Assembly: GCA_963665525.1 (NCBI GenBank)
Contig: OY762280.1
Span: 3,948,084-4,012,083, forward strand
DNA from: Bacteroidales bacterium
GTDB lineage: Bacteria; Bacteroidota; Bacteroidia; Bacteroidales; UBA12077
DNA length: 64,000 nt
Reading direction: 5' to 3'
The translations under genes were made by a program, and so were the position numbers. The notes beneath the pieces were generated by a model, which did no database searches, had not been told where the DNA came from, and saw only the letters and a program-made list of their open reading frames with translations. Within the stretch, counting starts at the first letter, position 1. Each line of letters begins with the position of its first letter. Positions 42,753-55,417 of the stretch are shown here, piece by piece.

Positions 42753-43802
42753 TTATGTGGTTTTAATTAATTTATCGAAATACATTGCAAACGAGCGATA
42801 TAAAAAGTGAGTCCATTTACCAAACGGAACTATTATTACAGCCCACTGTACAAGAACTATTAAATGGAATAAATACATCCAAAGGTTGTTTTCGATAATA
42901 TTTAAATCGATAAAAACTCTTACAATAAATGCTGTTAATCCCATTAAGAATAGCCAGATTACAAAAAACCAGTCCGATGGTTGTGAGAACTTGTTTACTT
43001 CTCTGTTTTTTCTAATTCTTCCAATCATAAATATGAATGTAATTGCAAAAATTGCAATACTTTCAATATATCCTAAAAGAATAATAAACATGTTTTCTGT
43101 CCCAAACCAATCTAGAACAACGGTAGTAAAAAGTAAAGCCAGATAACCAAATACAAGTATCATATGCATTAGCCAACGTCTATAACTATCGTCGCAACCC
43201 AAAGTTCGCTTTTGAGTAAACATATGAATAAACAGTTCTTTGGCTGTTAACAGATAGGTTTTAAATTTTACTTTTTTGCCTGGTTTTAATATTACAAACC
43301 ACCACATTCGTGCTAAGTTAGGAATAAGTATAACTGCAAAAACAGCAGCAATAGCAAGCATTTCGAATGTATGTCCAAAGTGCATAATTGCTTCGGTATT
43401 AAAATTTAGTTTAAAACTAAACCAAATAACTGCGATAGCAGTAGCAATAAATGCAAACAGACTAAAAAATAATGATTTGTATAATAGACCCGATAAACCG
43501 GTCCAGTCGTATTTTGCAGTAAGCCATCTTCTTAACGACATCATTAATTCGCCAGGATTAGCTTCTCGCGGACAAGTACTTGCACAATCGCCGCAATAAT
43601 AACATAACCAAGGATCTAATGATGATGTAATTTTCTGATCTAACCCAAGAACACTGGCACGCACCATTTTTCGTGGGAAAGAATTGTCTTTATCAGATAA
43701 GCTGCATACAGCAGTACAATTCCCGCAATTATAACACGCATTAAAATCGTTGTTACCGTATTTGAAGATTTCTTTTGCAAATTTAGGATTTATTCTTGCC
43801 AT
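42753..43802 (-). CDS. QmoC-like subunit: HdrC-type 2x[4Fe-4S] domain fused to a 6-TM cytochrome-b-like (HdrE/NarI-type) membrane domain
   Basis: It has two ferredoxin-type motifs (CYNCGNCTAVC and CYYCGDCASTCP). About six hydrophobic helices follow, carrying candidate haem-ligand His residues (HFGH, MHMIL, FHLIV, WTHF). Confidence 0.8.
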   Translation of the reverse strand: MARINPKFAKEIFKYGNNDFNACYNCGNCTAVCSLSDKDNSFPRKMVRASVLGLDQKITSSLDPWLCYYCGDCASTCPREANPGELMMSLRRWLTAKYDWTGLSGLLYKSLFFSLFAFIATAIAVIWFSFKLNFNTEAIMHFGHTFEMLAIAAVFAVILIPNLARMWWFVILKPGKKVKFKTYLLTAKELFIHMFTQKRTLGCDDSYRRWLMHMILVFGYLALLFTTVVLDWFGTENMFIILLGYIESIAIFAITFIFMIGRIRKNREVNKFSQPSDWFFVIWLFLMGLTAFIVRVFIDLNIIENNLWMYLFHLIVLVQWAVIIVPFGKWTHFLYRSFAMYFDKLIKTT

Positions 43803-43807
43803 ATGAT

Positions 43808-44086
43808 TTACTTTTTCAATTTGTAAAAATAGTATTCATCCATATCATCAATTTCCCCGGTTTCAATACTTCCGTATTTTTGCAAAGTCATTAAATGATA
43901 GGTGACTATATCAAAAGGAATACCTGTTTCTTTAGCAATTTGAGGAATGGTTTTATCTTCCGCTTCGAGAGCTTTCAGGATTTGTTTTTTTATCCTGTTA
44001 AACTCTTTCATTTTTTCTTTTACTTCATCGGAAACTTTCCTCGTTTTCTTAATAATGTCTATTGTTTTTTCCATAATATCTTGCAT
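43808..44086 (-). CDS. Small winged-helix DNA-binding-like protein (Cys-free)
   Basis: 92 aa. The pattern RIKKQILKALEAEDKTIPQIAKETGIPFDIVTYHLMTLQKYGSIE looks like an ArsR/MarR-type wHTH. The gene lies 2 nt and 5 nt from its neighbours inside the operon. Confidence 0.55.
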   Translation of the reverse strand: MQDIMEKTIDIIKKTRKVSDEVKEKMKEFNRIKKQILKALEAEDKTIPQIAKETGIPFDIVTYHLMTLQKYGSIETGEIDDMDEYYFYKLKK

Positions 44087-44088
44087 TA

Positions 44089-46023
44089 TTAATCAATTAA
44101 AGCTTCAATCATACTTTCCATTTCTTTGTCTGTGTATCCAATTAAGTCAATTGCATTTTCAGGACAAACAGGTAAGCACATTCCGCATCCTTTACATAAT
44201 GATTTATTTACAACAGCAACCTCTTTACCATCGGTTGTAGTTTTTGAAATAGCATCGTACGGACAAGCGTTAGAGCAGTTATCACACCACGAACATTTAT
44301 CGTTATGAATAACGGCCATGGTTGGTTCAAGTTCAATTTCGCCTAAGCTAACCAAAGAGTTTGCTTTAGATGCAGCCGATAGTGCCGATTTTACCGATTC
44401 GGTAATATTTAAAGGAGCCTGACAAGCACCTGAAATTAATACTCCATCGATAACGGTTTCTACAGGACGTAGCTTAGGATGTATTTCGTTAAAGAATTTA
44501 TCTCTACCAACAGGAACTTTAAGTAAGTTAACAATGCCTTCGTATTCTCTAGGAACCATTCCGGTTACTAAAACAACTAAATCAGCATTAATTTCTACTT
44601 CTTCGTTGTCGGTTAAAATATCTTTAATTTTAACTATAGTTTCGTTGCCAACATATTGAACTTCCGGAGGAGAATCTTCGAAAGATTGTAAGAAAATATC
44701 GCCAGCTTCGGATGCTTGATGATAAAGTTTCTCTTGCTTTCCGTAAGTTCTTATTCCACGGTTAAAATGGAAGTTATTAATGTTTGGATATTTTTCTTTA
44801 ACAAGAATCGCGGTATGAATTGCTGATGTACAGCAATAACGCGAGCAATATTTATTAGGCCCATCAACCTGACGACTACCAACACAATAGATGTAAGCTA
44901 TATTTTTAACTTCTTGATGATTGTATAATAATTTATCATTATTAAGTTCAATTAATCGCTTAAATTGCTGAAGTGTAATTACATTACTTACCTCATGGTA
45001 TCCAAATTCGCCTTTTTCAGGTTCATAAGGGTTAAATCCGGTACAAAGCTGAATAGCTCCAACAGTAATTTCTGTTTCGGTTTCAGTTTGTTCAAGATCA
45101 ATATCATCGCATATGGCCACACATTCGCCACATTTAGTACAAGCTTTATAATCAATTGCAGGAATTTCAGGAAACTCACTACAGTAGTTTTTAAAAATAG
45201 CTTTACGTTTTGTGATGTTAAAATTGAAATCGTCATCAACCTCAACAGGGCATACTTCAATAGCTTTTTGGAACTTCTCTTTATCAAGTTTGCAATCGGG
45301 TTTAATATAGCGTGGAATAGTTTTTAATTTAAGACTATATTCTCCAACACTACCTTTTTTCTCAGCAATTTCGGTTCCGGTATAAAGCGTAATTTTTGGA
45401 TGAGAAATAATTTCATTGTATAAACGAGATACTACTTCTTGTCCGGTTTCATTAGTTGTAAACAATACGTTCCATTGAGAGGTACGACCACCAACAAAAT
45501 GTTCGCGCTCAATTAAATGAACAGTCGTTCCCATTTCGGCAAGTTCCAAAGCAGCACGCATTCCTGCAATACCAGCACCAACAACAGCAATGGCATTTTG
45601 CGATGGAATTTTAACAGGAGTAAGTTCTTTTGAATATTTTACTCTTTCAATTCCTCCCTGAACTAATTTTATGGCCTTTTCGGTTGCCATTGGGGCATTA
45701 TCGGAATGTGCCCAGGAGCCTTGTTCACGGATATTAACCTGAACGTAATTGTAAGGATTTAACCCGGCGCGTATCGCTACATTTCTAAATGTAAACAAGT
45801 GTAATTTTGGAGAACAAGATGCAACAACTATAGCATCCAAACTTTGTTCTTTGATATCGTTAGCAATTTCTTGTTGTGTGGAATCGGCACAGGCAAACAT
45901 GGTTGTTTTTGCCAGTGTAACTCCTTCAACTTTTGCGGCAGCTTCTTTTACTTTTTCAACATCTACATAGTCGGAAATATTCGAGCCGCACATGCATACA
46001 TATACTCCAATTTTATTTTTCAT
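44089..46023 (-). CDS. HdrA-like FAD/FeS oxidoreductase (QmoB-like but lacking the MvhD domain)
   Basis: It has an N-terminal CMCG motif, the dinucleotide fold VVGAGIAGMRAALELAE, the HdrA signature CVGSRQ...YCSRYCC and a C-terminal 2x4Fe-4S (CSWCDNCSNACP, CKGCGMCLPVCP). It overlaps the upstream gene by 11 nt. Confidence 0.85.
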   Translation of the reverse strand: MKNKIGVYVCMCGSNISDYVDVEKVKEAAAKVEGVTLAKTTMFACADSTQQEIANDIKEQSLDAIVVASCSPKLHLFTFRNVAIRAGLNPYNYVQVNIREQGSWAHSDNAPMATEKAIKLVQGGIERVKYSKELTPVKIPSQNAIAVVGAGIAGMRAALELAEMGTTVHLIEREHFVGGRTSQWNVLFTTNETGQEVVSRLYNEIISHPKITLYTGTEIAEKKGSVGEYSLKLKTIPRYIKPDCKLDKEKFQKAIEVCPVEVDDDFNFNITKRKAIFKNYCSEFPEIPAIDYKACTKCGECVAICDDIDLEQTETETEITVGAIQLCTGFNPYEPEKGEFGYHEVSNVITLQQFKRLIELNNDKLLYNHQEVKNIAYIYCVGSRQVDGPNKYCSRYCCTSAIHTAILVKEKYPNINNFHFNRGIRTYGKQEKLYHQASEAGDIFLQSFEDSPPEVQYVGNETIVKIKDILTDNEEVEINADLVVLVTGMVPREYEGIVNLLKVPVGRDKFFNEIHPKLRPVETVIDGVLISGACQAPLNITESVKSALSAASKANSLVSLGEIELEPTMAVIHNDKCSWCDNCSNACPYDAISKTTTDGKEVAVVNKSLCKGCGMCLPVCPENAIDLIGYTDKEMESMIEALID

Positions 46024-47311
46024 GAGTACCTCCTCTCAAGTAGCCTGCAGTTTCTGAGGAAGCTGCTCCGGCCGATAATATTGAATCTGGGATATCCATT
46101 GGCCCTGATGCTGTTCCTGCTACATAAACCCCATCAATATTGGTTTGTGCAGGGTTGGCAAGTAAATCTCTTTGTTGAACATAATTAAATTGATCTAACT
46201 CAAGATTGTTGTTAAACATTGATTTAACACCATCGTTGGCTAAAATACCAGTCGATAAAACAACCATATCGTGATTCGCTTCTTTAACAGTTCCACTTTC
46301 AATATCCTCGTATCTTAACTTAAGGTCTCCATCTTCAATTTCTTCTATTTTACCAATCTTACCTTTAATAAAGCTTACACCCATATCTTTTGCTTGTTGG
46401 TAAAACTCGTTAAATCCTTTACCAAACGACCGTATGTGTAAGTAATAAATTGTGATATCGGCCATAGGTAATGCTCCCATTAAAAGCTGGGCTTGCTTAA
46501 TTGAATACATACAGCAAACTTGTGAACATATTGGATTTCCAACAGTTTCGTCGCGCGAACCAGCACATAATACATAAGCAATATTGTCGGGCATTTTACC
46601 ATCTTTAGGTCTTAGAACAGTATTGTATGGACGTGTTGGAACTAGCTGACGTTCCATTTGCATGGCTGTAAGTACATTTTTGAATTTTCCAAAACCGTAT
46701 CTTGGAATATTTTCTGCATCGAATAGTTTATATCCGGTTGCAATAATTACCGATTTTGCCTGAATAGCTATGTCTTGCTTTTCTTGAGTAAAATCGATAC
46801 AGTTTGCAGGGCAGGCTTTTTCACATGCTCCGCATAAGCTACAGTTTTCAATATCTATTGCAGCAACCCTGGGATTGGCAATACTAAAAGGTACATAAAC
46901 AGCTTTACGGCCAACTAAATCCCATTGATATTGGTCTTTTACCACTACAGGGCATTTGTCTTCGCAAATCTGGCATCCTGTGCATGATTCTTCATCAACA
47001 TAGCGTGGATACTTGGTTAAGGTAGCGCGAAAATCAAATTCAGACTTTTTATCAATATTACTTACCTGGCTGTTGGTATAAATAGTTATATTTGGATGTC
47101 TTGCTGTTTCGGATACTTTAGGTGTTGTAATACATGCAGAACAATCTAATGTTGGAAAAACCTTACTTAAGTGGATCATTTTACCACCCAGGGATAAGTC
47201 TTTTTCAACAATAATGACTTTATAACCTTGGTTTGCAAGGTTAAGAGCTGCTTCTTCTCCAGAAATTCCTCCACCAATAACAAGAACATCGTATTCTTCT
47301 GATTTTGTCAT
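46013..47311 (-). CDS. HdrA-like FAD/FeS oxidoreductase (QmoA-like)
   Basis: It has VLVIGGGISGEEAAL, FPTLDCSACITTPK and CAGSRDE...CSQVCCMY, matching HdrA signatures, plus two inserted ferredoxin motifs (CTGCQICEDKCP, CSLCGACEKACP). Confidence 0.9.
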   Translation of the reverse strand: MTKSEEYDVLVIGGGISGEEAALNLANQGYKVIIVEKDLSLGGKMIHLSKVFPTLDCSACITTPKVSETARHPNITIYTNSQVSNIDKKSEFDFRATLTKYPRYVDEESCTGCQICEDKCPVVVKDQYQWDLVGRKAVYVPFSIANPRVAAIDIENCSLCGACEKACPANCIDFTQEKQDIAIQAKSVIIATGYKLFDAENIPRYGFGKFKNVLTAMQMERQLVPTRPYNTVLRPKDGKMPDNIAYVLCAGSRDETVGNPICSQVCCMYSIKQAQLLMGALPMADITIYYLHIRSFGKGFNEFYQQAKDMGVSFIKGKIGKIEEIEDGDLKLRYEDIESGTVKEANHDMVVLSTGILANDGVKSMFNNNLELDQFNYVQQRDLLANPAQTNIDGVYVAGTASGPMDIPDSILSAGAASSETAGYLRGGTHEK

Positions 47312-47327
47312 ATTGAGTAATTTTTAG

Positions 47328-47729
47328 TTAATTCTCCGAAGCTTTAGATAATTGCTCATGAAATGTTTTCATGTGCTTTACAAAAGCTTCTGCACAAACG
47401 GAACATATAGCAGCCATTTTTAATCGGGCAGGATCCATATTTTTTTCTTTCATGATAGCATGAGTCGCTTGCACTATTTTTGATGTTTTTTCAGAACAAG
47501 TATCGCTATAAGGACAGTCGGTTCCGTCAGCAGCAATAAAAACACCATCGAATCCTTTTTCGAAAGCATGTAAAATCCATTGTGGTTTTACCGAGCTAGA
47601 ACAAGGAACATTAACAGTATAAACTGTTGCAGGATAATGTTTTTTAAGGAGCCCCGCCATATCGATCGCGGGGTCCGAAATTTTCTCAGTTGAAAAAACC
47701 AGAATCTTTGGATTCTTTAATTTTTCCAT
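47328..47729 (-). CDS. MvhD/FlpD-like iron-sulfur protein (hydrogenase delta-subunit family)
   Basis: 133 aa. The layout ILVFST...VPCSS...FDGVFIAADGTDCPYSDTC...AICSVCAEAF is typical of MvhD-type [2Fe-2S] proteins that partner HdrA. Confidence 0.8.
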   Translation of the reverse strand: MEKLKNPKILVFSTEKISDPAIDMAGLLKKHYPATVYTVNVPCSSSVKPQWILHAFEKGFDGVFIAADGTDCPYSDTCSEKTSKIVQATHAIMKEKNMDPARLKMAAICSVCAEAFVKHMKTFHEQLSKASEN

Positions 47730-47732
47730 CGT

Positions 47733-47984
47733 TTATCCTTTCTTCATGTAAATTTTGAAGTATCCTGACTCTTCTACTGTACCTAAGTAGTCGTGGCCTT
47801 TTTTAGCAGCCCACTTAGGGATATCTTTTTTAGTTCCTTCGTCGGCAGAAAGAACTTCCATAATTTGACCTGAAGTTATTTCGCCAATTGCTTTTTTAGC
47901 AGCTAAAAGTGGTCCTGGACATGCTGTTCCTCTTGCGTCGACTGATTTGTCAACATTTAATGCTTGTAATTCTTCTGTTGTCAT
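47733..47984 (-). CDS. TusA-family sulfurtransferase (second copy)
   Basis: 83 aa with the CPxP active-site motif in VDARGTACPGPLLAAKKAI. Confidence 0.9.
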   Translation of the reverse strand: MTTEELQALNVDKSVDARGTACPGPLLAAKKAIGEITSGQIMEVLSADEGTKKDIPKWAAKKGHDYLGTVEESGYFKIYMKKG

Positions 47985-48004: not shown

Positions 48005-48418
48005 TTAAATAAATAAATTAACGTCTGTTTCTTGAATAGACTCAATGTATTCTCCAATTCCACAAATGTCATCAACCACATCAATGAAATCTTCGATTTT
48101 TTCTCCACCGGCAATTTTACCTGCTAAACTGCAGATATGGATTTTTACTTCGGTCATTTCTTTTGCCATTTCGAAAAACTCAATCCACGATGGTGTTGAT
48201 AAGCTTTCGAGAGCAGCTTTAAATTCGTCGGGTGTTTGAACATCTTCGCTCATATTTGATATATCGGCAGCTTTACTTTTTAAGAATGCATGACCTGCAT
48301 TTACCAGAACAAATAAATCTACTTCCATATCGTCGGCAGCAGCACCACTTAAAATAACGCCAACACTTGTTAATTTATCGATGCTTGATGTGCTCAAACC
48401 TATTGTCATTTTTGCCAT
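48005..48418 (-). CDS. DsrE/DsrF-like sulfur-relay family protein
   Basis: 137 aa with an alpha/beta pattern (VGVILSGAAADD...DLFVLVNAGHAF...KIHICSLAG) typical of the DsrE_2/COG2210-type relatives of DsrE. The candidate active Cys is in HICS. Confidence 0.75.
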   Translation of the reverse strand: MAKMTIGLSTSSIDKLTSVGVILSGAAADDMEVDLFVLVNAGHAFLKSKAADISNMSEDVQTPDEFKAALESLSTPSWIEFFEMAKEMTEVKIHICSLAGKIAGGEKIEDFIDVVDDICGIGEYIESIQETDVNLFI

Positions 48419-48443: not shown

Positions 48444-48947
48444 TTAACCTCCACAGCCTCCGCTCGATTCTTCTTTTTTAGGTTCTGCAACAGGTGCAGC
48501 TTCACCCATTCCTTGTTCAACTAATTCAGGATAAGTTGCTTCCCAATCGAACCAGCTAAAATCAAGCAAATAACAATCGGAATATTTTAATAATTCCAGA
48601 GATTGAACAGCTAATGCACCGCTACCCATTTCGTTACCAATTACTAAAGTTTTTATTCTACGATTTGATATTTTACCCGAGAATTCCAGTAATCCGCGAG
48701 GAATATGAATTGATCCCGGAATGTGGCCAAGTATAAAATCATAATCTTCGCGACAATCAACAATTTGAATCTCAGTGTGATTATCAATTAGATTTTTTAA
48801 TTCTTCCATGCCCAATGTTTTGATTTCTGCTTTTGCAGCAGCTATCATATCATCTACATTTTCATAAACTGTATTATCTTTCTGAACACAGCTTGATAAT
48901 AAGATGATTGACAATAAGGTCGGAAAAATGAATTTTATAAATCTCAT
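48444..48947 (-). CDS. Rhodanese-domain lipoprotein without active-site Cys, ending in GGCGG
   Basis: It has the lipobox LLSSC and a rhodanese core (IVDCREDYDFILGHIPGSIHIPRG). The active-site loop reads LVIGNEMGSGALA, with no Cys. A Pro/Glu/Ala linker follows, then the C-terminal SSGGCGG and a stop. Confidence 0.8.
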   Translation of the reverse strand: MRFIKFIFPTLLSIILLSSCVQKDNTVYENVDDMIAAAKAEIKTLGMEELKNLIDNHTEIQIVDCREDYDFILGHIPGSIHIPRGLLEFSGKISNRRIKTLVIGNEMGSGALAVQSLELLKYSDCYLLDFSWFDWEATYPELVEQGMGEAAPVAEPKKEESSGGCGG

Positions 48948-48958
48948 AATTACTTATT

Positions 48959-49765
48959 TTATAATTTCCATTCGTTGTATGCTCCGTCGTAAACTTTTAC
49001 GTTAGGATACTCAAGAACTGAAGTTAATGCAAGATATACTATCCCGGCTCTTACGCTGGTTGCACAGTAAAGAATAATTTCTTTGTCTTTGGTAATACCT
49101 GCACCATTAAATAATGCTTGTAAATCTTCTTTTGATTTAAGTTTACCGCCATCGGCTAAAACATTTTTATACTCTAAGTGCTTAGCACCTTCGATGTATC
49201 CTTCTGCCCATTCTGTATCGTCTCTAACATCAACAAGAATAGCCGACTTTAATTTAGATTTTACATAAGCTTTATCGGCAAAGATTTTAGCATTTACTTT
49301 AGGAGTAAATGTTACAGCAGCTTTTTTTGTTGCAGCATTTGTAACTGGACCTCTTGCGGTTCTCCATGCTTGCATATGACCATCCATAACTTTCACATCG
49401 TTGAATCCTAAATATTTTAGAATCCAGTATAAACGGCCTGCACCTTTATTTGAACCTGTATCGTAAATGATGATTTTTTTAGCTGGATCAATTCCTTTTT
49501 CTCCTAAGATAGTAGCTAGTTCAGCTGGAGATTTAAGAATTCCTTTAGGATCAGTTGTGCTTGCTAAGTCGTTAATGTTCACATTAACCGCATTTCTGAT
49601 ATGCACTTTTGCATAATCGGCTGGAGTTCTAGTAGATACAATAACAGCATCTTTGCTATTCACTAATTTCTTAGCTTCGGCAGCAGAAATTAAATCCTGA
49701 GCAAAAGAAAGATTTGCGAATATAGCTACTAATAAAAGACTAAATAATATGTTTTTTAATTTCAT
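48959..49765 (-). CDS. Secreted two-domain rhodanese (thiosulfate sulfurtransferase type)
   Basis: It has a signal peptide (LSFA|QD). The N-domain loop IYDTGSNKGAGR is inactive (Asp in place of Cys). The C-domain loop LYCATSVRAG is active. Confidence 0.9.
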   Translation of the reverse strand: MKLKNILFSLLLVAIFANLSFAQDLISAAEAKKLVNSKDAVIVSTRTPADYAKVHIRNAVNVNINDLASTTDPKGILKSPAELATILGEKGIDPAKKIIIYDTGSNKGAGRLYWILKYLGFNDVKVMDGHMQAWRTARGPVTNAATKKAAVTFTPKVNAKIFADKAYVKSKLKSAILVDVRDDTEWAEGYIEGAKHLEYKNVLADGGKLKSKEDLQALFNGAGITKDKEIILYCATSVRAGIVYLALTSVLEYPNVKVYDGAYNEWKL

Positions 49766-49776
49766 AATTTCGTTTA

Positions 49777-50823
49777 TTAAAATTTAACCTGAACTTGCAA
49801 TACAACCTGATCGTTAGGAATTTCTAAAGCTTGTTCTGCTTTGTATCTGTAATTTAATTGAACACGTGTCCAATCGTTTAAGAAATAGTTTAATCCAAAT
49901 GTCATGATTGTTTCAGAGTTGTCGTCGATATCTACGTCAGAATCAAAGCATTCAAATTTGAATACTGGTTGTAAATTCCATCTTGTAGTATACATTGCCT
50001 GTGCAAAATAACCGCTACGAGTTACACCACCAGTATGATATTCGATTGGTGTACCATCGCAACCACCACCAGTTGTGTAATCGCCAGTATCATCGGCCCA
50101 AAGATATTCTGCCTGAAATAAGAAATTTCCGGTTTTTATTTGTACTTCGCCACCTAAACGAGTTTTCTCGTTATCTTCTTCGGCACCTGTTTTACCATAG
50201 GCAAAACTACCGCCTACCTGAAGAAAATCAACAGGAGCAAATGTTAATCTTCCTTTTATACTTTTAGCTTTGTTTTCATCTTCGAAACCTTTTTCATAAT
50301 CATTCATTAAAGCTAAATAGTAGTTGATTTTAGAGTCGAGAAGACTACCAAAAACCATAGCTCCCATATCGCGTTGCGGACCTGCTAGTTCGTCAACAGC
50401 TTTTGAACGATAGATAGTATGAAGAGACTGACAAGGTGTGTTTTGCTCTAAACTTAATGGCGATTTAAACTGACCAAAGCTTATTTTGGCAAAATCGTAT
50501 CGTGAATAAGTCACAAATGCATCTAGTAACCATGGCGATCCTGATTTGAATCGAGAGAAATCAACCATGAAGAAATAACTTACATCGTAAGGAATATTTC
50601 CAACTGCAGCTATTCTTGCACGGTTAAAGGTAAAGCTGTTAGCATCTTTACCATCGGTAGTTTGATAATATTCCCACTGTGGCTGAATGTAACCTTTAAT
50701 GCTTACTCCTTCGTCGGAAGAAGCTTCCATACATCCTTGTGCAGAAACAAGCTGTGTAGATGTTAATACCACAAGAATTGAGAGGCTAAATATTGATAAT
50801 ATCTTTTTAATCATTTTTTTCAT
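49777..50823 (-). CDS. Outer-membrane porin, phosphate-selective porin O/P-like family
   Basis: It has a signal peptide (LVSA|QG), an N-terminal FTFNRARIAAVGNI block like the porin O/P family, a beta-strand periodicity and the C-terminal ...VLQVQVKF. Confidence 0.75.
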   Translation of the reverse strand: MKKMIKKILSIFSLSILVVLTSTQLVSAQGCMEASSDEGVSIKGYIQPQWEYYQTTDGKDANSFTFNRARIAAVGNIPYDVSYFFMVDFSRFKSGSPWLLDAFVTYSRYDFAKISFGQFKSPLSLEQNTPCQSLHTIYRSKAVDELAGPQRDMGAMVFGSLLDSKINYYLALMNDYEKGFEDENKAKSIKGRLTFAPVDFLQVGGSFAYGKTGAEEDNEKTRLGGEVQIKTGNFLFQAEYLWADDTGDYTTGGGCDGTPIEYHTGGVTRSGYFAQAMYTTRWNLQPVFKFECFDSDVDIDDNSETIMTFGLNYFLNDWTRVQLNYRYKAEQALEIPNDQVVLQVQVKF

Positions 50824-50877: not shown

Positions 50878-51843
50878 TTATTCTAATGGTAAGTCAGTAA
50901 TTGCTGTAGCATCCCACTTGTGTGAAGTAAGATTATCATAAATCATACTATTAACACCATTTTTTAAACTGTGTGGAGTATAACCTAATACATATAAATA
51001 AGCTGTTACCATTGAAGAAGTTTGTCCTGTCCAGCAATATGTTACCACATCTTTTGATGGATCAAGATACATATATTCTCCACCAGCTAATGTTAAAGGC
51101 TTAATTCGGTATGCACCAGAAATGTGTCCGTAAGTTGTAACATCAGCCGCATCCCAGAAATTATTTACATAGTAACTTCCTGGACTAGCTAATACGTCAG
51201 ACCCAGCAACACCTTGGAAACCAGCTGTTAATAATGCAGTAACTCTTGCGGCAAGAATTTCAGCACCTGTTCCTGTAGTTGTAATATCAGGATCGTCGAA
51301 TTGAGTAGTTTGAGTACTTACAGCACCAGGAGCAGCAATCCAGTTAGGGCTATCAATTGTATTACATGAACCACTCCATGAGTCAAGGCTGGTATGCCAT
51401 CCACTCATTCCCCATTTTAATACTTTGGCATCAGTATAACCGCTTAAACGTAAAGCAACGGTTCCATGTCCTGCTCCTTGTCCGCTATAACAAACAACAA
51501 TAATTGGTTTTCCGGCAGCATTACCTGCTTCGGTAACAATATTACCTAAAGTTGAATTTACTGCTCCAGGAATATGACTTGTGTTATATGCGTCAGAAGA
51601 TCTGATATCAATTATATAATAAGAGCTTAGGTTATCTTTTATAGCATCAGCAGTAGTGATCCAGTCAGTTAGTATATTATCCAAATCCAAATCGTTAGCT
51701 ACTAAGTACTCTTTTAGAATCTGAAATTCAGTGTCGGTTTGACGGTCTGGAGTTGCATCGTCATCACTGTCGTCTTTACAAGATGTTAAAACAAATGCAG
51801 GAATAATTAAAATTAATAATGCGTACTTTAAAAACTTTTTCAT
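50878..51843 (-). CDS. Lipoprotein with two rhodanese-like domains and an acidic post-Cys tract
   Basis: The lipobox VLTSC is followed by KDDSDDDATPD. Two rhodanese modules carry the loops VVCYSGQGAGHG and TYCWTGQTSS. I chose the ATG at 51843, because the longer ORF overlaps the upstream gene. Confidence 0.8.
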   Translation of the reverse strand: MKKFLKYALLILIIPAFVLTSCKDDSDDDATPDRQTDTEFQILKEYLVANDLDLDNILTDWITTADAIKDNLSSYYIIDIRSSDAYNTSHIPGAVNSTLGNIVTEAGNAAGKPIIVVCYSGQGAGHGTVALRLSGYTDAKVLKWGMSGWHTSLDSWSGSCNTIDSPNWIAAPGAVSTQTTQFDDPDITTTGTGAEILAARVTALLTAGFQGVAGSDVLASPGSYYVNNFWDAADVTTYGHISGAYRIKPLTLAGGEYMYLDPSKDVVTYCWTGQTSSMVTAYLYVLGYTPHSLKNGVNSMIYDNLTSHKWDATAITDLPLE

Positions 51844-51878: not shown

Positions 51879-52355
51879 TTATCCTCCACAACCACCTGAC
51901 TCAGGTTGCTTAGTAATAGCAGGGGCTCCGCCTGAAAATTTCATCCAACCACCTTTAAGGTTAGATATATTTTCGAATCCCAATTTTTGAAGTGATTTTG
52001 CAGCAAGAGCACCACGGCCACCTACTTTGCAATACACAATAATTTTATCAGTTTTTAGAGGGGTGTACATGAATTGCTCTTCCCAGAAATATTCATCAAG
52101 AATAAGGAATTCTAATTCACCACGAGGAATAGAGAATGATCCCGGAATATTTCCTGCTTCGTATTCGGAAGGTTGTCTTACATCTATTAAAAGGAATTCT
52201 TCTCCATTATCAATCATCGATTTTAAAGTATCGACAGATATTTCATTTATTTCGGTTGCAACAACACTAGCTAATTCTTTACCATCTTCATATATGGCAG
52301 TACAAGAAGAAAACAAGAAGATGAGCAGTGCTGCGATTGATATATTAAATTTCAT
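51879..52355 (-). CDS. Rhodanese lipoprotein with intact active-site Cys, ending in GGCGG
   Basis: It has the lipobox LFSSC, the core LIDVRQPSEYEAGNIPGSFSIPRG and the active loop IVYCKVGGRGALA. The C-terminus reads ...APAITKQPESGGCGG followed by TAA. Confidence 0.85.
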   Translation of the reverse strand: MKFNISIAALLIFLFSSCTAIYEDGKELASVVATEINEISVDTLKSMIDNGEEFLLIDVRQPSEYEAGNIPGSFSIPRGELEFLILDEYFWEEQFMYTPLKTDKIIVYCKVGGRGALAAKSLQKLGFENISNLKGGWMKFSGGAPAITKQPESGGCGG

Positions 52356-52381: not shown

Positions 52382-53596
52382 TTAAAAAGCACTGAATTTT
52401 CCTGTGCGTTCATTCCACTTAACAAATACATACCATATTAGTATTACTACAAGAACTAGAATAAAAGCTCCAGCATAGCCTAAATAGTCAGGCAAATAAT
52501 TTTTGAACTTCATTGTATGAGGGAGTGCATCAACGATTGCAGGAACAATATATTTTTTAGAAATAGGGGATACAAGTAAGAATCCTAATGCAGCCATCCA
52601 TAATTTAACCTGCCCTTCGCCTACACGCCAAAGTGTTCCAACGGCACATCCTCCGGCAACAGTCATTCCTAATCCAAAAATAAATCCTCCTAAAAGACCA
52701 CGTAACCAGAAATGTCCAAAAACCCAGGTCATTTCACGAGCACGAATAGTAGCATCGCCTGCACCAATACCAAAATATTTAATGGCAGTGAAACCTATTA
52801 ATGTAATAACTAAACCGGCCATTACTCCAACAGAACCATCGCTTTCGCCTGTCATAAAAGGATCGCGGAATGCTTTAACGATACAAAAGCGTGATCGTTG
52901 GCAAATGAGTCCCATTAATAATCCTGAAATTATAAACCAGGCTAATACGCCATTGGTTCCGGCAACTCTATATGCAAGAACAAAAGTTCCGATAGAAACG
53001 ATCCATCCTAACCAGATTTGCCATTTTCCTGTTTTTTCTGATGCAGCAAGGAAAGTAAAACTTTTACCTGTGCTAAAAGAAGGGAACTTTTCCATTTCCC
53101 AAAGCAAGTATTTAAGAGCAATTATAGTACCAGCAAAAAGTCCTATAGTAAAAATAATTGCTCCACCTGATAATGCTGGGACACCCGAGAAAAATGAACC
53201 AATTGTACAACCTAATCCCAGAGTTGCTCCAATAGCCATTAATGCACCTCCAATAAATCCTTTTATTAATTCTCCTTTAGGAGGTATTCGTAAGGCAAAT
53301 TCTTTTGAGAAGAGAGCTCCGGCAAATGATCCTAAAACCAGTATCAGGCAAAGCATACCATAAAGACTGGTACTTGTAGGTGCAGCATTTTCAAAAGCAG
53401 AAATACCCAGGAGCTTAAAAATATTCTCACCCCAGTTATTAATACCACCACTAGCACCCCAAGGACTTTTTACGGTAAATAGTAAAATGTTTAGTAGTCC
53501 CAGAGTAACACCACCAACCCATACTGGCCAGTGTTTGGCGAAAAAAATATTAAATAATTCGCGAAGTATTCCTGGCTCTTTTTGTTGATCAGCCAT
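52382..53596 (-). CDS. YeeE/YedE-family sulfur-compound (thiosulfate-type) transporter
   Basis: 404 aa and polytopic. It has the repeated Cys-containing motifs LGLGCTIGSFFSG, GLICQRSRFC and VAGGCAVGTLWRVGEG that are characteristic of YeeE/YedE. Confidence 0.9.
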   Translation of the reverse strand: MADQQKEPGILRELFNIFFAKHWPVWVGGVTLGLLNILLFTVKSPWGASGGINNWGENIFKLLGISAFENAAPTSTSLYGMLCLILVLGSFAGALFSKEFALRIPPKGELIKGFIGGALMAIGATLGLGCTIGSFFSGVPALSGGAIIFTIGLFAGTIIALKYLLWEMEKFPSFSTGKSFTFLAASEKTGKWQIWLGWIVSIGTFVLAYRVAGTNGVLAWFIISGLLMGLICQRSRFCIVKAFRDPFMTGESDGSVGVMAGLVITLIGFTAIKYFGIGAGDATIRAREMTWVFGHFWLRGLLGGFIFGLGMTVAGGCAVGTLWRVGEGQVKLWMAALGFLLVSPISKKYIVPAIVDALPHTMKFKNYLPDYLGYAGAFILVLVVILIWYVFVKWNERTGKFSAF

Positions 53597-53605
53597 TTTT
53601 ACCTC

Positions 53606-53836
53606 CTACTTTTTTTGTATTAGAAACCTGAAAACACCATTTTCAACTTCACCTTCTTCAAGTAAAGCGTTTCCTGTTTTTTCACACCATTTTGGTAGGT
53701 CTGATTTTGTTCCAGGATCGGTTCCTAACATTTCAAGCACATCTCCAGAACCTAATCCTTTAATTGCTTTTGCCAGTTTCATCATTGGCATAGGACATGA
53801 AAGCCCTTTTACGTCTAATGTTTCTTTAATTTCCAT
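53606..53836 (-). CDS. TusA-family sulfurtransferase (first copy, paired with YeeE)
   Basis: 76 aa with the motif LDVKGLSCPMPMMKLAKAI (CPxP). It lies 9 nt upstream of the YeeE gene. Confidence 0.9.
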   Translation of the reverse strand: MEIKETLDVKGLSCPMPMMKLAKAIKGLGSGDVLEMLGTDPGTKSDLPKWCEKTGNALLEEGEVENGVFRFLIQKK

Positions 53837-54025: not shown

Positions 54026-54721
54026 ATGGAAAAGATATCTGCTTTAAATAGTTGTACAGTAAGCAATGCAAAATGTATTTGTTTTGATTTATTGACGCCA
54101 GAACAAAGAGAATTGATTGAAAAAAATTCGATTGATGTTCGATATAAGAAAGGTGAAGTAATTTGTAAACATGGTACTTTTGCTCCACATGTTATTCTAC
54201 TTAAAGAGGGCTTGGCAAAAATTTATTTAGAGGGTTTAAATGATTCCTTAATCTTAAAAATAATTACTTCGGGTAATTTAATTGGGTTAACTTCTGTTAT
54301 GGAAGATAATAATGTGTTTCATTATTCAGCATCGGCATATGTTGATTCTTCTGCCAGCTTAATAGATATCAATATCTTTAGAAAAATTCTTAAAGAAAAT
54401 GCCGAATTTGCAAATTCGGTAATAAATATTTTATGTGAAAATTCCTTACAAACTTTCGGAAGATTTTTCTGCTTAACACATAAACAACTATATGGTAGAA
54501 TGGCAGATATTATCTTATGTTTATCTGAAAGAATCTTTAAAGAAAAAAGTTTTGTTTTAAATCTTACAAGAAAAGAGCTGGCTGAATTAACAGGGATGTC
54601 AACGGAAAGCGTTATACGAATGCTTAAGAAATTTAAAGATGACGGAATAATAGAACTGCAAGGAAAGGAAGTCGTTATTTCAAATTATGATTTATTGCGT
54701 AAGATTAGCGAATATGGATAA
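54026..54721 (+). CDS. Crp/Fnr-family transcriptional regulator
   Basis: It has a cNMP-binding-like beta-barrel and a C-terminal HTH (TRKELAELTGMSTESVIRMLKKF). The N-terminus carries the Cys residues CTVSNAKCIC. Confidence 0.9.
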   Translation: MEKISALNSCTVSNAKCICFDLLTPEQRELIEKNSIDVRYKKGEVICKHGTFAPHVILLKEGLAKIYLEGLNDSLILKIITSGNLIGLTSVMEDNNVFHYSASAYVDSSASLIDINIFRKILKENAEFANSVINILCENSLQTFGRFFCLTHKQLYGRMADIILCLSERIFKEKSFVLNLTRKELAELTGMSTESVIRMLKKFKDDGIIELQGKEVVISNYDLLRKISEYG

Positions 54722-54724
54722 TAT

Positions 54725-55417
54725 CTATCCATTTTTACTTATCTCTTTTAGTAGTTCCAGGTTTAAGATCTTTATTTTTTTACCCTTTAGCTGAATAATT
54801 TTTTCATCATTAAATTCTGATAATATTCGGGCAACACTTTCAATGGCCATTCCGGAAAGCTCGGCTAAATCTTTTCGATTAACATATGAAAATACATCAA
54901 TTGATTTAAACTCTTCTCTGTTTAAGTATAATAATACATTAGCTAATTTTCCATTTAATTGTTTTAAACCAAGGTTTAAACATTTGGTTAACATAATATT
55001 GTAGTTTTTACAATACCAACTTGCTAATTCGCGAGAAAAATCGCAGCTCATAGAGATTAAGTCTTTAATGGCATTTTGATTAATTGCACATACTTTTGTT
55101 TCAGTAATTGCAGCTGCTGAGAAATAATAGGAATCGTCGCCGTATAAAGAGGTTAATCCAATAAAATCATGCGGTTTTAGTAGTTTGATGATAATATTTT
55201 TACCGGGACCTTCGATGTATACTTTTACTAATCCATTAAGAACATATAAAATATCAGATACACGTGTGCCTTCTTTAATTATTGTTTCTCCTTTGTTATA
55301 TGTAACATGGGTTTTGACTAGATTATTAAACTCATCAATTATTTCAATATCCTGGATAAAACATTCCGATTTTCTGTTGCAATCTGTACAGTTAGTTTTT
55401 ATTAAATATCTGTCCAT
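54725..55417 (-). CDS. Crp/Fnr-family transcriptional regulator (paralog, convergent)
   Basis: It has the same architecture, with the HTH NRKDLAELSGMAIESVARILSEF and the N-terminal Cys cluster CTDCNRKSEC. Confidence 0.9.
   Translation of the reverse strand: MDRYLIKTNCTDCNRKSECFIQDIEIIDEFNNLVKTHVTYNKGETIIKEGTRVSDILYVLNGLVKVYIEGPGKNIIIKLLKPHDFIGLTSLYGDDSYYFSAAAITETKVCAINQNAIKDLISMSCDFSRELASWYCKNYNIMLTKCLNLGLKQLNGKLANVLLYLNREEFKSIDVFSYVNRKDLAELSGMAIESVARILSEFNDEKIIQLKGKKIKILNLELLKEISKNG

Follow-up and report, generated by a model that had tools for sequence, protein, structure and literature searches.

Why would a rhodanese that has no catalytic cysteine keep a cysteine on its C-terminal tail? 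The question is raised by Rhd167t, a 167-residue protein of a Bacteroidales bacterium (UBA12077; assembly GCA_963665525.1) that is encoded on the 64,000-nucleotide stretch of contig OY762280.1 analysed here (positions 3,948,084 to 4,012,083, hereafter the window), ends in GGCGG and shares its operon with a second GGCGG-tailed rhodanese, the 158-residue paralogue Rhd158t. We found that the tail cysteine is retained almost throughout the orthologues of Rhd167t and outlasts the catalytic cysteine in several lineages of a large family of tailed rhodaneses, and we see about an even chance that Rhd167t is a carrier arm for sulfane sulfur that is loaded in trans and, in the manner of SoxY, feeds the YeeE-type transporter encoded in the same operon.

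Rhd167t begins with MRFIKFIFPTLLSIILLSSC, which we read as a signal peptide and a lipobox LSSC containing Cys20; the stretch MRFIKFIFPTLLSIILL-S-S-C20 fits the lipoprotein pattern [LVI][ASTVI][GAS]C, a match from which both acylation and location are predicted. The lipobox cysteine is invariant in the orthologue alignment and a lipobox-like motif occurs in nearly all members of the tailed family. The sole Pfam match is to Rhodanese (PF00581; 51.7 bits against a cut-off of 22.2), and the full-length protein is 31% identical to Rhd158t, with HIPGSIHIPRGLLEF of Rhd167t standing opposite NIPGSFSIPRGELEF of Rhd158t. The gapless alignment of VIGNEMGSGALA (Rhd167t) with VYCKVGGRGALA (Rhd158t) puts Gly104 at the position of the catalytic cysteine, and the Lys and Arg of the paralogue's loop are gone too: where active sulfurtransferases have a loop CxxxxR/T opened by the catalytic cysteine, Rhd167t has GNEMGSG. 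Just before this degenerate loop lies a clade-specific and nearly invariant motif, K92-x-S-N-R-R-x-x-T100, that stands in place of an insert of ~11 residues in the paralogue (LILDEYFWEEQFMY) and may form a partner-binding or anion-binding surface. A preliminary description of the gene had proposed a lipoprotein with a rhodanese core, a loop without Cys and paralogy to the 158-residue protein, with which Pfam, lipobox and loop alignment all agree, and it had placed the GGCGG tail at codons 48447-48461 behind a Pro/Glu/Ala-rich linker, which is exact (final five codons GGA GGC TGT GGA GGT at 48461-48447, TAA at 48446-48444).

An AlphaFold2 (AF2) model derived from the aligned orthologues reaches a mean predicted local distance difference test score (pLDDT) of 84; averaged in blocks of 10 residues, the score is 88-97 between residues 31 and 140, and it falls below 50 at residues 150-158 and 160-167; the C-terminal arm is thus predicted by the model to be disordered. 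The sequence of the linker within this arm differs among orthologues while its length is kept (orthologues of 163-169 residues). Foldseek comparison with the PDB returned rhodanese-fold matches only, including 6mxv, 2hhg, GlpE (1gmx) and Sud (1qxn), each with a probability of 1.00, and Cdc25B, and a scan against NCBIfam gave no model above cut-off, the matches to generic rhodanese, MoeB or GlpE models being sub-threshold. A known named family is ruled out for Rhd167t by these sub-threshold NCBIfam matches and by the merely generic rhodaneses found in PDB sequence and fold searches. By its sequence, Rhd167t belongs to the catalytically inactive class of the rhodanese homology superfamily.

That the tail is neither a product of chance nor a signal in the DNA follows from several observations. 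From the amino-acid composition of the window, GGCGG is expected at a C-terminus with a probability of ~1.4e-7, and among the 171 stop-to-stop open reading frames (ORFs) of the window two end in G[GSA]C..., namely Rhd167t and Rhd158t. In the 1.23 Mb of related loci that we fetched (a sample biased by the homology used to fetch it), GGC(Gx) ends occur in 44 of 7,945 ORFs, and rhodanese proteins account for 43 of these 44 (BLAST identified 42 of them, and Pfam a tandem rhodanese as the remaining one). A homology search with Rhd167t yielded 50 homologues of 37-100% identity, all from metagenomes or from Bacteroidales metagenome-assembled genomes (MAGs). The alignment of paralogues and orthologues, which the preliminary description had proposed as a check, revealed the tail cysteine in 49 of the 50 (48 with the C-terminus GGCG[G/D], one with ...PEGC; the end of the fiftieth looks frameshifted) and a loop cysteine in none of them. 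Over 13 orthologous loci the tail codons vary (GGA, GGT or GGC for Gly, TGT or TGC for Cys), the linker immediately upstream varies in sequence and the tail peptide is invariant; because the codon differences are synonymous while the peptide is fixed, the tail is selected at the peptide level. Third codon positions vary freely, which rules out a hairpin or a signal for starting the gene downstream; a chance C-terminus is ruled out by the composition expectation, the ORF background and the conservation, which bears out the earlier argument that two GGCGG-tailed proteins in one operon are no coincidence. With conservation across phyla, synonymous variation only, an expectation of ~1e-7 and restriction to rhodanese-family proteins all against it, the likelihood that the tail is a non-functional C-terminus or a DNA-level signal is next to nil.

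Nor is Rhd167t a recent, decaying duplicate, an interpretation ruled out by the strong conservation of its orthologues (mean column identity 60%, with the clade-specific invariant motif). Both tailed paralogues are retained across lineages in which orthologue identity is just 40-52%, and their split is older than the divergence of the sampled Bacteroidales lineages. Rhd167t and Rhd158t are therefore old paralogues, given their 31% identity and the retention of both across divergent lineages.

The tail is shared by a large family. A search with Rhd158t returned 140 homologues, and the best 120 of these are nearly all lipoproteins of 155-190 residues ending in GGCGG, GGCGD, GGCGS or GGCGE, with ...GGC-COOH as the C-terminus of the more distant ones among the 120. 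Among 1.84 billion cluster representatives, a profile search found dozens of further tailed 50%-identity clusters along with two- to three-domain rhodaneses carrying the identical tail. Cys tails (...SGGC, ...GGCGG, ...GGCG) on tandem or triple-domain rhodaneses are encoded at L077:4401-5300 and present in clusters P0171, P0176, P0180, P0205 and P0267; to judge from such sequences, the Cys tail is a portable module that is not bound to a single-domain scaffold. As cluster P0264 (MBN2185256.1) is from Candidatus Krumholzibacteriota, the family reaches beyond Bacteroidota within the FCB group. We define its members by a rhodanese core of ~160-190 residues with a lipobox, a disordered linker that is acidic or rich in Ser and an end in GGCGG, GGCGD or GGC, and, as to context, by a position beside YeeE/TusA or an octahaem cytochrome of the octahaem tetrathionate reductase (Otr) type, with a tandem-rhodanese and porin cassette; Rhd167t falls within this definition. 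A full-text literature search found no paper that pairs a rhodanese with a GGCGG tail and none that describes a tailed rhodanese or the operon, and this large tailed lipoprotein-rhodanese family of the FCB group appears to be undescribed so far.

Within the family the catalytic cysteine has been lost repeatedly. It is present in 138 and absent in 71 of the 209 tailed single-domain members that we counted; since these members were selected by presence of the tail, the census addresses loss of the catalytic cysteine only, and the unbiased sets are the two homology searches with Rhd167t and Rhd158t. On a neighbour-joining tree without bootstrap, used for coarse grouping only, the losses fall in several lineages, each of which has kept the tail cysteine: a clade with a short insert and a DCR motif that includes Rhd167t, scattered Ser variants among relatives of Rhd158t (P0114/P0132, P0130, P0145) and a Gly variant in Krumholzibacteriota. 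The short-insert DCR clade contains a graded series from Cys over Ser to Gly at the catalytic position. Two deep positional orthologues that also lie between a Rhd268-type gene and dsrE, P0282 and P0313, have a loop cysteine (CENYQK, CNNGER), as does P0304 (CETGER), which belongs to the clade by its sequence; other members have Ser with the loop Arg retained (SQTNDR, SNQQNR), and the subclade of the window, with GNEMGS, has neither Cys nor Arg. Because the deep positional orthologues retain the loop cysteine, its loss is a derived state that arose while the position in the operon remained unchanged. The tail cysteine is, by these alignments, the most conserved cysteine of the family, and its retention in several lineages that lost the catalytic cysteine suggests that the arm is the centre of function.

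Two loci bear directly on what a Cys-less tailed rhodanese can be. In L075, from a Bacteroidales MAG, both tailed rhodaneses (L075:8898-9383 and L075:12403-12912) are Ser-substituted (LFSNSGKRG, VYSDNEAKS) and both end in GGCGG, and both tandem rhodaneses of the same operon retain their catalytic cysteine. In L079, from a Candidatus Krumholzibacteriota MAG, the sole tailed rhodanese is P0264, which has Gly at the catalytic position and no cysteines other than those of lipobox and tail. Each of the four examined loci with a Cys-less tailed rhodanese (the window, L017, L075 and L079) encodes at least one further rhodanese, whose catalytic cysteine is seen in three of them (the window, L017 and L075), that of L079 being known as a Pfam domain only. 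These loci also weigh on a different account of Rhd167t, namely that, as the inactive half in a tandem rhodanese divided over two proteins, it forms a heterodimer with Rhd158t or another rhodanese and shapes the active site of its partner, the tail cysteine being auxiliary, for instance as a resolving or protecting thiol. Tandem rhodaneses do pair an inactive with an active domain, as Rhd268 of the same operon does (IIYDTG versus ILYCATS), the two tailed genes occur together in 12 Bacteroidales loci carrying YeeE and again in L075, and the conserved surface motif K92-T100 suggests a binding interface. However, the L075 pair has no active half, a single Cys-less tailed protein suffices in L079, and a tail more conserved than the loop is left unexplained, and we regard this account as unlikely. 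Rhd167t does resemble Cys-less rhodanese domains, among them the inactive N-terminal ones of tandem rhodaneses (bovine rhodanese, RhdA, SseA), in fold, in the degenerate Cys-less loop and in a presumed structural or recognition role; unlike them, it stands as a polypeptide by itself, is anchored by a lipid of its own and has a conserved, presumably reactive cysteine on a C-terminal arm.

Contrary to the preliminary description, the arm cysteine is not the only one that remains: besides the lipobox cysteine, mature Rhd167t has Cys165 on the arm, C65 in the motif VDCRE and C125, of which C65 is conserved in 49 of 50 orthologues and C125 is variable. C65 aligns with the cysteine of the VDCRY motif of Cdc25B. 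In Cdc25 this is the 'backdoor' cysteine, close enough to the catalytic one to form a disulfide with it. Rhodanese domains of the Cdc25 type share the CH2A motif (V/I)DCR(x)xY(D/E)(F/Y)xxGHI, with its cysteine between Asp and Arg; unlike Rhd167t, Cdc25 has its catalytic cysteine and is a cytoplasmic phosphatase, and the comparison bears on C65 only. Rhd167t might accordingly still be active, if C65, exposed by the change of the loop cysteine to Gly, were a relocated catalytic cysteine that exchanges sulfur with the tail cysteine. The near-invariance of C65 among orthologues, its presence throughout the short-insert DCR clade except in P0050 and its alignment with the Cdc25B cysteine that lies near the catalytic one would fit such a relocation. 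The C65-equivalent position, however, is Val or Ile in 153 of 209 tailed family members, and since it is usually Val or Ile across the wider family, this suggests that it is buried; P0050 has Val there and yet keeps its tail; and because P0282, P0313 and P0304, which retain the loop cysteine, already have DCR, C65 predates the loss of that cysteine. A relocated active site is very unlikely on these grounds.

Of the known sulfur carriers, SoxY provides the closest parallel to the trans-loaded carrier arm that we favour for Rhd167t. SoxY is likewise periplasmic, with an identical C-terminal GGCGG-COOH and a single carrier cysteine on a mobile peptide, and truncated Sox systems, whose cargo has been proposed to travel via a YeeE-like transporter, TusA/DsrE and an Hdr-like complex (PMC11582611), have the same downstream parts. 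The two proteins differ in that SoxY is an Ig-like beta-sandwich and a soluble Tat or Sec protein of sulfur oxidisers with a short beta-strand extension, whereas Rhd167t is an alpha/beta rhodanese and a lipoprotein of an anaerobic Bacteroidales host with ~17-20 disordered residues. Rhd167t has the GGCGG motif (GGCG[G/D] in orthologues) and lacks the SoxY fold and Pfam profile, and no soxAX, soxB or soxZ gene was found in the operon or among the examined ORFs of the window that flank it; the different fold and the missing sox genes rule out membership of the SoxY family. The resemblance is convergent, and by analogy Rhd167t plausibly works like SoxY. The earlier proposal of a dedicated carrier or acceptor paralleling SoxY hence stands as far as the parallel goes, being in keeping with the tail that outlasts the loop cysteine, with L075 and L079 and with the YeeE, TusA and DsrE genes, though not as kinship with SoxY, and sulfur on Cys165 is a prediction from the comparison. 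Sud of Wolinella succinogenes (PDB 1qxn) is also a single-domain periplasmic rhodanese, which hands polysulfide sulfur to a membrane-bound sulfur respiratory system, but there the catalytic-loop cysteine bears the sulfur and a C-terminal Cys arm is missing, the reverse of Rhd167t. DsrC/TusE is a small protein with conserved cysteines on a flexible C-terminal arm that moves sulfur or disulfide between enzymes and an Hdr-like or DsrK-like reductase, but is cytoplasmic and of unrelated fold, with two arm cysteines and no GGCGG.

The genes around Rhd167t supply the parts for such a relay (Table 1). The operon runs TusA, YeeE, Rhd158t, a tandem lipoprotein rhodanese, an OprO/P-type porin, Rhd268, Rhd167t, a DsrE-like gene and a second TusA, followed by a Qmo-like module in the order MvhD/FlpD, two HdrA-like genes, a small helix-turn-helix (HTH) gene and a gene for an iron-sulfur (FeS)/membrane protein; gaps of 11 nt (between the stop codon of Rhd268 and the start of Rhd167t) and 25 nt flank Rhd167t. 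Those Bacteroidales/Tenuifilaceae MAG loci that lie on contigs long enough to cover it show the full order, and L075, L079 (L079:7031-18516) and L084 essentially do so too. A minimal locus, L017, has TusA, YeeE, Rhd158t, Rhd167t and DsrE together, with tandem rhodanese and porin absent and TusA, MvhD, HdrA and a QmoC-like gene nearby on the opposite strand. In the QmoC-like protein an HdrC-type FeS domain precedes a long hydrophobic stretch at the C-terminal end, and the separate MvhD, the two HdrA-like flavoproteins and the QmoC-like protein together look like a Qmo-type quinone-linked complex, near which no AprAB is encoded in the window.

Table 1. Features of Rhd167t, its operon and the related Otr loci. 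Coordinates are window positions unless a locus is given.
Feature	Coordinates	Strand	Remarks
Rhd167t, lipoprotein with rhodanese domain predicted to be catalytically dead and C-terminal GGCGG arm	48444..48947	-	167 aa
Rhd167t signal peptide, residues 1-19	48891..48947	-	sequence reading
Rhd167t lipobox L-S-S-C	48888-48899	-	Cys20, predicted acylation site
Rhd167t rhodanese homology domain, residues 48-137	48537..48806	-	Pfam PF00581, 1.3e-13
Rhd167t Cys65, CH2A motif VDCRE	48753..48755	-	conserved in orthologue clade
Rhd167t motif K92-x-S-N-R-R-x-x-T100	48646-48672	-	
Rhd167t degenerate active-site loop G104-N-E-M-G-S-G110	48618..48638	-	no Cys or Arg; paralogue C-K-V-G-G-R-G
Rhd167t flexible linker, residues 146-162 (~17 residues)	48462..48512	-	Pro/Glu/Ala/Lys-rich
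Rhd167t GGCGG tail	48447..48461	-	Cys165, proposed sulfur-bearing residue; stop 48444-48446
TusA-like, first gene of operon	53606..53836	-	76 aa
YeeE/YedE-family membrane transporter	52382..53596	-	three channel cysteines of S. thermophila YeeE conserved
Rhd158t, paralogous lipoprotein rhodanese	51879..52355	-	158 aa; catalytic Cys (VYCKVGGRG); ends SGGCGG
Tandem rhodanese lipoprotein	50878..51843	-	321 aa from ATG; Cys in both domains; mature N-terminus C-KDDSDDD
Outer-membrane porin, OprO/P type	49777..50823	-	weak ExtI match (2e-12)
Rhd268, secreted tandem rhodanese	48959..49765	-	catalytic Cys in C-terminal domain (ILYCATSVRAG); weak ExtH match (8e-18)
DsrE-like, cytoplasmic sulfur-relay protein	48005-48418	-	
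Second TusA, cytoplasmic sulfur-relay protein	47733-47984	-	
Qmo-like redox module	42753..47729	-	
MvhD/FlpD	47328-47729	-	
QmoA-like HdrA	46013-47311	-	432 aa
QmoB-like HdrA	44089-46023	-	644 aa
Small HTH protein between QmoB-like and QmoC-like genes	43808-44086	-	92 aa, no Cys
QmoC-like FeS/membrane subunit	42753-43802	-	349 aa; NF038018, 1.5e-46, below cut-off
Otr loci with GGC-ended rhodanese (catalytic Cys present) and cytochrome b561-type subunit	L074:7734-10522, L076:6757-9513, L077:6531-9519		

With its YeeE (bearing the three channel cysteines), TusA and DsrE, the operon matches a model published for Hyphomicrobium, in which sulfane sulfur on the GGCGG cysteine of SoxY reaches sHdr by way of the YeeE-like SoxT1A and, after it, rhodanese/TusA/DsrE3C (PMC11582611). 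The authors of that study describe the transfer into the cytoplasm as occurring 'by unknown means' and call the hand-over from periplasm to transporter speculative and unresolved (PMC11582611). For the window we propose that Rhd167t would be a periplasm-facing lipoprotein whose non-catalytic rhodanese domain serves as docking scaffold and whose disordered arm of ~17-20 residues would present the glycine-flanked Cys165 as covalent carrier of sulfane sulfur from persulfide or polysulfide. Anionic sulfur such as polysulfide or thiosulfate would enter through the anion porin of the operon, its sulfane sulfur would be captured by the Cys-bearing rhodaneses and then transferred onto the arm cysteine, with Rhd268, encoded immediately upstream, as the likely loader and the tandem lipoprotein rhodanese or Rhd158t as other candidates. 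The loaded arm would move to the periplasmic mouth of YeeE, whose three channel cysteines would pass the sulfur inward to TusA and DsrE, and the Qmo-like menaquinone-linked flavo-FeS complex would then reduce it or, less likely, oxidise it. Lacking a catalytic loop of its own, Rhd167t would be a pure carrier.

Several points weigh against this carrier model. The topology of Bacteroidota lipoproteins is ambiguous, and a surface-exposed Rhd167t would be unable to reach YeeE. Most Bacteroidales loci have two different tailed carriers, which the model leaves unexplained, and C65, lying under the degenerate loop, may provide another reactive thiol. Finally, the YeeE of the window scores higher on the selenium-linked YedE/FdhT model, its best NCBIfam match (136 bits), than on TsuA (95 bits), both far below cut-off. 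This score is also the starting point for assigning the operon to selenium, tellurium or another soft metal(loid), in which case the tail cysteine would bear selenium as selenotrisulfide or perselenide. The TusA proteins weakly match YedF, and the porin and Rhd268 weakly match ExtI and ExtH, the porin and rhodanese of a Geobacter selenite/tellurite reduction operon, all with scores far under the curated cut-offs. Neither selD nor any other selenium gene appeared among the examined ORFs of the window; a DsrE/TusA/Qmo-like module typifies dissimilatory sulfur metabolism, as do the Otr and Psr genes that neighbour the family in related loci, and four rhodaneses with a respiratory-type complex would be heavy machinery for a trace element. 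The probability of such a system is very small indeed, and the ExtI and ExtH matches hint, at the level of sequence, that porin and rhodanese are an older shared module for chalcogen anions.

The transporter also differs in length and layout from its relatives. It has 404 residues, compared with ~330-350 for TsuA and SoxT, and its residues 222-341 align with the N-terminal part and residues 78-156 with the C-terminal part of S. thermophila YeeE; from this alignment the order of the pseudo-repeats looks swapped.

Two different tailed proteins in one operon also invite the explanation that they act in thiol-disulfide exchange, the tail cysteine attacking persulfides or polysulfides on other carriers, releasing sulfide and forming tail-tail disulfide or polysulfide bridges, as a periplasmic redox shuttle or reductant. 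SoxY forms inter-protein disulfides through the same GGCGG motif, and a related subfamily of GGC-ended rhodaneses adjoins an octahaem reductase. On the other hand, the operon has no periplasmic re-reducing system (DsbD/CcdA, thioredoxin), and operons with a single carrier exist (L079), which makes this role quite unlikely.

The GGC-ended subfamily forms an Otr-associated branch of the family. Tailed rhodaneses P0163, P0153 and P0157 are encoded directly downstream of a b-type cytochrome and a cytochrome of the octahaem tetrathionate-reductase family. The latter matches TIGR04315 with 559 bits (cut-off 375) and PDB 1sp3 with 8e-117, and a tandem-rhodanese/porin/tandem-rhodanese cassette adjoins the Otr loci or lies nearby, with a Crp/Fnr-type gene adjacent. 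Each of these loci has one tailed rhodanese, with its catalytic cysteine intact, and no Rhd167t-type gene; the Cys-less positional clade is therefore tied to the YeeE/Qmo-like system. Otr may act on, or together with, a protein-bound sulfur carrier.

Other features of the operon and its relatives are recorded here. The mature N-terminus of the tandem lipoprotein rhodanese presumably resembles the acidic export signal by which lipoproteins of Bacteroidota reach the cell surface, and the protein may be a surface sulfur-capturing rhodanese beside the porin; its orthologue in L075 has the mature N-terminus C-RKDEDS. In some Bacteroidales loci (L002:1715-6642, L003:11669-16593, L012:8536-13463 and L015:11662-16589) the two HdrA-like genes are much longer than those of the window (~900 and 740 residues versus 432 and 644) and their products merely 55-68% identical to them; the QmoC-like match spans just ~100 residues in L002 and L012, and L004 has a duplicated DsrE gene. 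Two genes for Crp/Fnr-family regulators lie directly upstream of the operon (54026-54721 on the plus strand and 54725-55417 on the minus strand), and a Crp/Fnr-type gene is also found beside the related operons of L074-L078 and L084; such neighbours are consistent with anaerobic or redox control.

For the family as a whole, we consider it possible, at clearly less than even chance, that tail-Cys rhodaneses are widespread and unrecognised periplasmic covalent sulfur carriers of FCB-group anaerobes, a convergent, rhodanese-scaffolded equivalent of SoxY, in which Cys-less forms such as Rhd167t act as dedicated donors, their GGCGG arm entering YeeE-type importers, and the GGC-ended relatives are physiological substrates or partners of the Otr octahaem 'tetrathionate reductases'. 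If so, arm insertion would be the missing periplasmic step of sulfane-sulfur import, and the SoxY carrier motif would have evolved convergently on a different fold. Three questions would become directly testable: how sulfane sulfur is presented to importers of the YeeE/SoxT type, for which Rhd167t is a concrete candidate periplasmic donor; what the real substrate of Otr-type octahaem cytochromes is, for which protein-bound sulfur on a tail-Cys carrier is a new candidate; and how fermentative and anaerobic Bacteroidales use zero-valent sulfur in sulfidic sediments. In having lost the catalytic cysteine in several lineages and kept that of the arm, the family offers a natural experiment.

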